DNA of 58,371 bases, from contig JAZDFI010000030.1 of assembly GCA_043808015.1 (NCBI GenBank), forward strand, positions 1 through 58,371, written 5' to 3'. Below the pieces are notes generated by a model. It searched no databases. It was given only the letters and a program-made list of their open reading frames with translations, and was not told where the DNA came from. Both the position numbers and the translations under genes were made by a program. This document shows, piece after piece, positions 39,794-57,365 of this stretch; the stretch's first letter is position 1, and the number at the start of each line of letters is the position of its first letter. This DNA comes from Candidatus Aenigmatarchaeota archaeon (GTDB lineage: Archaea > Aenigmatarchaeota > Aenigmatarchaeia > QMZP01 > QMZT01).

Positions 39794-39970
39794 TAGCGGG
39801 GGATGGAACTTCAGAAGGAAACAGATTTTCTATTTCTTTCTTTTGAACCATCGACCTCTGGGTGTCCCACTGGAACTAGTTCCAGCGATTCTAGAGCCGC
39901 TATGGGCCCAGCGAGCACTCCAGGCGTTGAGAGCAACCGAATAATTCGATATGCTTTGCTCCACCCCGCT
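39794..39970 (-). tRNA. initiator tRNA-Met(CAT) with three introns: 14/15 (39926-39956), 37/38 (39864-39900), 59/60 (39808-39841)
   Basis: Removing the three segments at BHB-type bulges (CA|A..AC|G, TA|G..AC|A, AA|A..GT|T) gives a 75-nt AGCGGGGTGGAGCAGCCTGGAGTGCTCGCTGGGCCCATAACCCAGAGGTCGATGGTTCAAATCCATCCCCCGCTA, with A1-U72 and three G-C pairs in the anticodon stem. Confidence 0.92.
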
Positions 39971-40520
39971 ATTGTTTGGCTTTAATTGAATTATTACTTG
40001 TCTTTATAAATTTAAATGAAATGTAAAGAGCGTAAGATGGGAGTTTATCTTTTTTTGATTTCACTCTTTTAGCCAAAGTAGAATCGAGATCGAAATTTTT
40101 TAATAAAGATTTTATCTTCTCAAGAAGCTTTTTGTCTGTATTGATTATTTGAATATAACTTTTTTTCCAACTTACGTAACCATCAGAATCTATAAGACCA
40201 GAAATCACTCCCATATTAAAATTTTTATTTTTTGTGAATCTGAAACTGGAAATATACGAAAACAATTCTTTTGATCTGACTCTTATCTTATTACAATTAT
40301 ATCTTTTATCTTTTGTCACCGTTGGGGCTAAATTTATTTTTTCAAGAATTTTAATTAGGTATTTTTGTATTTCTCTATCTTTCACGGAGTTTAGATAAAA
40401 TTCTACATCGTAATGTCTGTTTTTAATATCGTGATAGATATACCCATCACCTAAAAATAAACCTATCAAATAACCCGTATCTTTGTCACTTAATTTTGAA
40501 AATATTTCTCCACTCCGCAT
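39969..40520 (-). CDS. free-standing double-motif LAGLIDADG homing endonuclease
   Basis: YLIGLFLGDGYI and VISGLIDSDGYV motifs; very AT-rich; stop codon TAG overlaps nt 1-2 of tRNA-iMet. Confidence 0.85.
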   Translation of the reverse strand: MRSGEIFSKLSDKDTGYLIGLFLGDGYIYHDIKNRHYDVEFYLNSVKDREIQKYLIKILEKINLAPTVTKDKRYNCNKIRVRSKELFSYISSFRFTKNKNFNMGVISGLIDSDGYVSWKKSYIQIINTDKKLLEKIKSLLKNFDLDSTLAKRVKSKKDKLPSYALYISFKFIKTSNNSIKAKQ

Positions 40521-40541
40521 AATTACTATATCTATCTAAAA

Positions 40542-40549
40542 TATTTAAA
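40542..40549 (-). promoter_or_regulatory. TATA box for a leaderless LAGLIDADG transcript
   Basis: TTTAAATA with 21 nt between it and the ATG at 40520. Confidence 0.5.
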
Positions 40550-40591
40550 TATTTCTCCACCCCGCTGTGCTATAATGTATGAAGAATAATG

Positions 40592-40608
40592 TTTATAAAT
40601 AACTTTTA
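40592..40608 (-). promoter_or_regulatory. BRE/TATA positioned for the orphan 12-nt tRNA 5' fragment (probable original tRNA-iMet promoter)
   Basis: AAAAGTTA-TTTATAAA on the minus strand, 25 nt upstream of AGCGGGG at 40566. Confidence 0.5.
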
Positions 40609-52702: not shown

Positions 52703-52861
52703 GCGGGGGTAGCCAAGCGGTTAAAGGCGATAGAACGGTCTTGAACTCTGATTCAAGATGATGTCGACGCTCAAGACCTATTCACTTAGAGTGCCTTTCG
52801 CGGACAGGAACCGCGAAGAACGCGAGGAGTGTGTTCCAGGGTTCGAATCCCTGCCCCCGCA
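52703..52861 (+). tRNA. tRNA-Leu(CAA) with two introns: 30/31 (52734-52768) and variable arm (about 52790-52829)
   Basis: Acceptor GCGGGGG/CCCCCGC; T arm CAGGG-TTCGAAT-CCCTG. CGAT/GTCG helix with AG|A and AC|G bulges restores ATAGG-CTCAAGA-CCTAT. The second excision restores variable arm TCACTTAGTGTGTTC; about 84 nt mature. Confidence 0.88.
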
Positions 52862-57215: not shown

Positions 57216-57365
57216 CGCCGGGACTGGGATTCGAACCCAGGACCCCGTAAGGAGACTAGCTGTCTGGGAAAATCTCAAAACGCAAACACGGAGTTTCGTT
57301 TTTTCGATAAAGCCTTTTTTCAAAAGGCTTTCCAGGCTAGCGCGTTACCGTTCCGCCATCCCGGC
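57216..57365 (-). tRNA. tRNA-Ser(GGA) with a 68-nt canonical 37/38 intron (57262-57329)
   Basis: GCCGGGA/TCCCGGC acceptor, G73, long variable arm; CTGG/CCAG helix with AA|A and AC|A bulges; 82 nt mature. Confidence 0.93.

Follow-up and report, generated by a model that had tools for sequence, protein, structure and literature searches.

The window, i.e., the whole 58,371-nt stretch of DNA analysed in this work, belongs to a DPANN archaeon with a genome of about 0.93 Mb (hereafter G000; assembly of 934 kb, 90.7% complete), and it carries on its minus strand an initiator tRNA-Met(CAU) gene of 177 nt (39794..39970) constituted by four exons and three introns, with no encoded CCA. In this orientation, tRNA nucleotide 1 corresponds to position 39970 and the discriminator A to position 39794, and all parts of the gene are given here from 5' to 3' on that strand. 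Exon 1 (39957..39970, 14 nt) comprises tRNA positions 1-14 and is followed by intron 1 at 14/15 (39926..39956, 31 nt), which has a relaxed splice motif and is found as the same 31-mer in the same-genus genome G003. Exon 2 (39901..39925, 25 nt) comprises positions 15-37 with 17a and 20a, holding the anticodon CAT and C33, and precedes intron 2 (39864..39900, 37 nt), of the hBH type, at the canonical 37/38 site. Exon 3 (39842..39863, 22 nt; positions 38-59) is separated by intron 3 at 59/60 (39808..39841, 34 nt), with a strict hBHBh' motif (3-4-3), from exon 4 (39794..39807, 14 nt; positions 60-73), after which a T-rich trailer is found. These coordinates are exactly those proposed in the first-pass annotation of this DNA, in which the strand was absent; the share of intronic sequence it had counted, 102 of 177 nt, agrees with the lengths of the three introns (31 + 37 + 34 nt).

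For the comparative analyses, 61 genomes of the same order were searched with the 177-mer, and the orthologue was recovered in 38 of them, G000 included; no locus was fetched for 23 of the 61 genomes, and two weak matches (L042 and L043) held no orthologue and were dropped. The exon borders were fixed independently of splice motifs, by aligning the mature 75-mer to the related genomes with long gaps allowed. The exons joined by script amounted to 75 nt, and ARAGORN folded this product into a perfect cloverleaf (7, 4, 5 and 5 stem pairs), identifying it as tRNA-Met(cat); together with the alignment of relatives, this confirmed both the initiator tRNA-Met identity and the location of the introns at exactly 14/15, 37/38 and 59/60, as had been previously suggested. 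The joined exons are colinear with the intron-less orthologues of G022, G005, G011 and G048, and the mature sequence is identical (75/75) to those of G002, G003 and G004, three genomes of the same genus whose intron sets differ. Marks of archaeal initiator tRNAs include A1:U72, A11:U24 and three G:C pairs at the foot of the anticodon stem; all are displayed by the spliced 75-mer (the latter as G29-31:C39-41), and among the 23 distinct mature sequences of the orthologue set A1:U72 and the 29-31:39-41 G:C pairs were invariant. These 23 sequences also showed two-sided changes at 7 of 21 stem pairs, with a single non-standard cell out of 483. Position 33 (window 39904) is occupied by C and not by U, the latter being near-universal in tRNAs; C33 is common to 19 of the 38 orthologues, distributed in all examined genera of the host's family except g8, plus G054. 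Since C33 is also present in intron-less genes, it constitutes an encoded lineage trait and not an error in a splice border.

On the unspliced stretch, no tRNA was detected by ARAGORN or by Rfam, the latter at both the gathering threshold and E 10. The sole Rfam match, mir-9228 (E 0.3; 17.8 bits vs. a cut-off of 100), was discarded as a chance match. As the unspliced gene is missed by both programs, automatic annotation would report a genome without an initiator tRNA, and the importance of the three-intron initiator gene by itself is chiefly for annotation. The first-pass annotation had called for a check that this is the sole initiator gene. A genome-wide spliced (gapped) alignment was carried out over the 934-kb assembly, in which the locus scored 128 and the runner-up 52.7, with no second initiator-like locus in this 90.7%-complete assembly.

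The splice motifs of the three introns were assigned with a classifier based on a 4-bp central helix (H), two 3-nt bulges, and outer helices on the exon (h) and intron (h') sides of at least 2 bp, following the bulge-helix-bulge definition (H of 4 bp, 3-nt bulges with the cut sites, h and h') given in section 4.8 of 10.64898/2026.10.13.758758. The 59/60 intron (H 4/4, h 5, h' 3) has the strict hBHBh' form of the published definition, with the elements originally described for it: the GATGG/CCATC helix, the TTCA/TGAA helix, and the bulges AAA and GTT, each divided after its second base, followed by the h' helix. The 37/38 intron (H 4/4, CCCA/TGGG; h 5; h' 1) is of the hBH type and has no proper h' helix. 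The 14/15 intron (H 3/4, h 0, h' 4) is relaxed, its h' being continued by a hairpin; GGAG faces CTCA, as initially noted; three of the four pairs are formed (G9 lies opposite A), and G10-G12 of the D-stem are used. Among random sites of the window, the corresponding chance rates were 0.04% for hBHBh', 0.23% for hBH and 1.6% for relaxed motifs with h', and the observed motif was matched in 6, 61 and 115 of 20000 shuffled introns for introns 3, 2 and 1, respectively. Ten orthologues share the 14/15 layout, with an h' whose sequence varies yet stays paired (covariation), and 8 of these 10 (all except L026 and L038) retain the purine-purine mismatch opposite position 9. In addition, intron 2 contains the perfect 16-nt palindrome that had already been noticed (39870..39885), which forms a hairpin of 6 bp adjacent to the central helix. 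Four perfect 16-nt palindromes, including this one, are found in the window, vs. a mean of 0.93 in 100 shuffles; it is retained in G003, and other hairpins are found instead in G001 and in other genera.

The enzymes expected to process such introns are encoded in the genome. A splicing endonuclease of the epsilon2 type, EndA (395 aa; contig C9:15186-16370), has two PF01974 matches in one frame and is a single polypeptide of three units, two catalytic-type and one structural; its residues 2-395 align with residues 5-387 of the ARMAN-2 chain 4fz2 (E 2.3e-105). The search for loci related to EndA returned one locus only, and the ligase RtcB is encoded as well (E 5.9e-155). According to the passages of PMC3239211 on cleavage, the ARMAN-2 enzyme cuts strict 37/38 and relaxed hBH 59/60 motifs in vitro, and PMC12397907, in its part on the ARMAN-2-specific loop, describes that mutation of Y160/K161 abolishes cleavage; a Tyr-Lys pair is aligned in the specificity loop of EndA, hand-counted as 159-160, that is, one off the published numbering. 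Near-full-length matches to the three-unit enzyme were found in 53 of the 61 genomes, and six more had partial matches, at contig ends or split. Two genomes had no three-unit match, G005 (none at all; 83% complete) and G048 (a short alpha-like match only; 88% complete), and both carry intron-less initiator genes. By the account in PMC5829648, the epsilon2 type was known in 2018 only from Micrarchaeum and Mancarchaeum; its distribution across this Aenigmatarchaeota order would thus widen the enzyme type beyond the published Micrarchaeum group. From these elements, a maturation pathway can be proposed: a primary transcript would contain the three short introns, each folded locally into a bulge-helix-bulge-type motif; the epsilon2 endonuclease, an orthologue of the ARMAN-2 enzyme, would cut within the bulges, with exon ligation by RtcB and, lastly, the addition of CCA.

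Immediately upstream of the tRNA, and absent from the first-pass annotation, an intact double-motif LAGLIDADG homing-endonuclease ORF of 183 codons was identified on the same strand (39969..40520), whose TAG stop codon covers the base preceding tRNA nucleotide 1 plus nucleotides 1-2. The ORF matches PF14528 in two stretches (E 2.7e-20), its translation displays the two LAGLIDADG motifs and their acidic residues, and its best match among solved structures is I-DmoI (E 9e-5, residues 15-149). It lies within an AT-rich cassette (39971..40554, minus strand; 584 nt, with 25.7% GC vs. 49% for the window) that is not found at this site in the same-genus genomes G003 and G002. Beyond the cassette, a relic copy of tRNA positions 1-12 (40555..40566, minus strand) is still attached to the ancestral upstream flank, and a third copy of the 5' 12-mer, matching at 10 of 12 positions, overlaps the start codon of the ORF (40508..40519, minus strand). 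In G003, which is devoid of the ORF, the upstream flank can be aligned (89%) as far as window position 40552, where the alignment enters the relic 12-mer, and in G002 28 nt are identical at the flank of the relic copy. This comparison defines the layout of the locus as the old promoter, the stranded old 5' end, the cassette, and a replacement 5' end joined to the gene. The cassette brought replacement tRNA positions 1-12, stranding the old copy beside the old promoter. A TATA-like octamer (40592..40599, minus strand), which precedes the relic copy by 26-33 nt, is probably the ancestral tRNA promoter. With the old 5' end stranded, the tRNA probably derives from a transcript starting in or upstream of the cassette, from which it would be released by RNase P. 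At its left edge, the cassette bears a perfect A/T palindrome of 16 nt (40539..40554), centered about 27 nt before the ATG of the ORF, which is a possible TATA element for a leaderless endonuclease mRNA; an A/T run resembling it is also found in G018.

The arrangement is not exclusive to G000, as G018, G004, G035 and G044, which represent two families of the order, also have a member of this endonuclease family immediately preceding the initiator gene in the same orientation, with the end of the ORF ranging from 16 nt before to 31 nt inside the tRNA. The stranded 12-mer is kept in G018 and G004 and is not found in G035, and the contig of G044 starts inside the ORF. Contigs of relatives in public metagenomes displayed the cassette together with other intron sets. 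Elsewhere in G000, a 260-codon frame contains a weak LAGLIDADG paralogue (E 7e-4 and 4e-3; C15:2894-3361, plus strand), located 84 nt upstream of an interrupted tRNA match on the same strand (C15:3445-3554).

With the integration of these findings, we consider it highly probable that the locus is the single working initiator tRNA-Met gene, interrupted by three bulge-helix-bulge-type introns, with its front end invaded by the LAGLIDADG cassette. The alternative of a decayed or redundant copy that yields no product, with the working initiator gene located in the missing ~9% of the genome, could appeal to the completeness of the assembly (90.7%) and to the disruption of the original 5' end by a mobile cassette. 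We regard it as very improbable, since the exons of the three same-genus genomes mentioned above are fully conserved while their flanks are only 69-92% identical, every stem is intact, the orthologue was found at one place in the examined loci of each of the 38 genomes, and a complete replacement 5' end is supplied by the cassette itself. An even more remote reading would place the ORF inside a giant intron, with the upstream 12-mer as the real exon 1, spliced in the manner of the endonuclease-bearing rRNA introns of Crenarchaeota; the upstream copy does adjoin the ancestral promoter, and I-DmoI, the closest solved relative, is a homing endonuclease according to its depositors. However, over 13 registers of the resulting 596-nt intron at most two of four central pairs were formed, with no outer helix, a 629-nt version reaching position 15 failed too, and the upstream copy comprises positions 1-12 only; with no splice motif in any of the 13 registers, this reading was rejected.

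A further question concerns the three possibly ordered splices suggested by the first-pass annotation. An obligatory order would arise if the intron-2 palindrome and the D-stem competed with the splice helices, and some features point in this direction: pairing is possible between the two bases that flank the palindrome and the initial TG of TGGG in the 37/38 central helix, a potential competition that had been correctly anticipated; the 14/15 central helix recruits G10-G12 of the D-stem; and the minimum-energy fold pairs the 3' part of intron 2 with the D-stem and an anticodon-stem strand instead of forming the motif. In relatives bearing both 32/33 and 37/38 introns, moreover, the 37/38 motif drops from hBH to 3/4 central pairs in the full precursor; its central helix becomes continuous only after removal of the 32/33 intron, and order may therefore matter there. 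Nevertheless, we judge an obligatory order unlikely for the gene of G000, whose anatomy does not demand it. No nucleotide is common to any two of its three motifs, and a fixed sequence of excision is therefore unnecessary; the class of each motif is unchanged whether the full precursor or a version lacking the other two introns is considered; in silico removal of one or two introns gave no consistent rise in the probability of the remaining motifs; and the palindrome is absent in other genera bearing the homologous intron. In naked-RNA folding, the structure with all three motifs lay 14.5 kcal/mol above the minimum, and the pair probability of the 37/38 central helix was ~0 across all eight splicing states. 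In the control with introns of orthologues, however, the strict 37/38 motifs of L029, L031 and L041 also gave 0.0; as strict motifs of relatives are near zero, folding energies cannot decide order or competence, and this measure was dropped.

The number of introns varied widely among the 38 orthologous initiator genes: 4 genes had none, 11 had one, 10 had two, 9 had three and 4 had four. The most used site was 59/60 (21 genes), followed by 14/15 and 37/38 (11 each), 20a/21 and 29/30 (6 each), 32/33 and 7/8 (5 each), 53/54 (3) and 43/44 (2), with four further sites represented by single cases. One of the latter, an insert at '11/12' in L028, corresponds to masked sequence (a run of N) and cannot be interpreted; for L037, visual inspection merged the two inserts given by the aligner (39 and 8 nt) into a single insert of 47 nt at 14/15. 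Within the host's genus alone, the intron sets were 14/15, 37/38 and 59/60 in G000; 14/15, 32/33, 37/38 and 43/44 in G003; 32/33, 37/38 and 59/60 in G001; 7/8 in G004; and 59/60 in G002. The four-intron genes were L002 (G003), L004 (G015), L005 (G010) and L006 (G019), and these have two introns in the anticodon loop (32/33 and 37/38) with a 5-nt exon in between. The 59/60 intron of L038 (G054) measures 255 nt and contains an internal direct repeat, the introns at this site being of 14-63 nt elsewhere. Four public metagenome runs (DNA) included contigs from relatives, some having particular introns and others lacking them, with a share of 0.11-0.14 of the sampled words.

These data do not sustain the view of the first-pass annotation that a triple-intron initiator gene is rare and notable, given that three introns are present in 9 of the 38 orthologues, four introns in 4, and none in only 4. 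Furthermore, at least 16 of 29 Rfam tRNA matches in this genome span >100 nt, and a broad-specificity epsilon2 endonuclease is encoded. The three-intron state is thus ordinary in this lineage, and the mechanism is the known archaeal one. Two other interrupted tRNA genes were recognized in the window, both missed by ARAGORN and with an anticodon-region insert bridged by Rfam: one of 150 nt on the minus strand (57216-57365; insert of ~70 nt) and one of 159 nt on the plus strand (52703-52861; insert of ~97 nt), the latter being lost at the default filters of Rfam when the whole window was searched. As a whole, the orthologue set presents a near-invariant, essential 75-nt RNA whose gene holds from none to four introns, distributed over about ten sites within one order, with differences even within a genus, and it constitutes a compact natural data set on the speed of tRNA intron turnover in archaea. 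This fast turnover, together with the cassette, is the part of the locus worth following.

Both features may be connected, and we tentatively suggest, from the comparison of sequences, that the endonuclease cassette and its nearest intron could travel as one mobile unit, a possibility that we hold as somewhat doubtful at present. Homing would introduce the ORF together with a new tRNA 5' end. In the gene restored in this way, the enzyme's target would be interrupted by the intron next to it, located at 14/15 for this type of endonuclease and at 7/8 for a second type; a later deletion between the 12-nt repeats would drop the ORF, leaving an orphan intron. The presence of the cassette at the same site varies among relatives, an indirect sign of homing. 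Several circumstantial observations are consistent with the mobile unit. An intron located within 5 nt of the 12/13 junction accompanies 5 of 5 cassette alleles (at 7/8 or 14/15) vs. 13 of 33 alleles in which no cassette was found (hypergeometric ~0.017, calculated by hand and uncorrected for relatedness, one of the 13 being the masked L028 insert). In G004, the stranded old copy is uninterrupted through 7/8 and the replacement copy has the 7/8 intron, and the structure of G003 is exactly that expected after a repeat-mediated loss. Against a mobile unit, no endonuclease remnant or relic is found upstream of two cassette-free 7/8 alleles, the endonucleases are mutually only 46-68% identical, and the 37/38 and 59/60 introns lie far from the cassette. 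The search for remnants or relic 5' copies in the ~1.3-1.8 kb flank upstream of the cassette-free alleles of G031, G046, G034 and G001 gave none, and only weak endonuclease-remnant matches (E 0.002-0.01) were obtained near the genes of G019, G047 and G014. If true, the mobile unit would represent a DNA-level route of tRNA-intron gain, and would explain how 1, 1, 3, 3 and 4 introns at different sites coexist in one genus with identical mature initiator tRNAs.

Regarding known systems, the ORF resembles I-DmoI in being a double-motif LAGLIDADG protein with both motifs and their acidic residues. I-DmoI is encoded inside an rRNA intron, whereas the ORF described here is not contained in any intron and is flanked by two copies of the tRNA 5' end. 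The splicing machinery and introns find a close counterpart in ARMAN-2 (Candidatus Micrarchaeum acidiphilum; Fujishima et al., 2011, PMC3239211), with the same 395-aa three-unit enzyme architecture, introns at 59/60, 53/54 and 37/38 with strict and relaxed (hBH) motifs, and interruption of more than half of the tRNA genes. In contrast, the host here belongs to Aenigmatarchaeota, and a three-intron or initiator tRNA gene is not described in the passages of that paper on these genes. The literature on four-intron archaeal tRNAs, on tRNA introns of Micrarchaeota and Aenigmarchaeota, and on free-standing LAGLIDADG genes at archaeal tRNA genes did not yield this gene layout, and the supplement of PMC3239211 might tabulate a multi-intron initiator gene of ARMAN.

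The known three-intron tRNA genes of Crenarchaeota share with this locus the presence of three bulge-helix-bulge introns, non-canonical sites and relaxed motifs; their hosts differ in having an (alpha-beta)2 heterotetrameric enzyme, and up to four introns occur in this same gene among the relatives studied here. PMC3239211 sets at three the maximum number of introns in an archaeal tRNA gene, and up to five were reported in a 2026 survey of Asgard archaea (10.64898/2026.10.13.758758). As in that survey, introns were detected here through compact relatives and not through their motifs, they lie at splice-motif sites, many gains are apparent and annotators miss them; unlike it, our data come from another superphylum with another enzyme. 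The arrival of introns is a question left open by the Asgard survey, for which the cassette is a concrete and testable candidate. In this respect, the closest published parallel to the cassette layout, going by the description of that locus in its source, is the tRNA-Thr(GGU) locus of Caldiarchaeum subterraneum (Sugahara et al., 2012, PMC3293823), which likewise displays a stranded 5' fragment, a mobile insert and an intact intron-bearing tRNA gene, and for which the authors propose tRNA intron gain via a mobile element; its insert is of 1.8 kb with a predicted recombinase, whereas that of G000 is a 0.6-kb cassette whose LAGLIDADG ORF runs into the tRNA.
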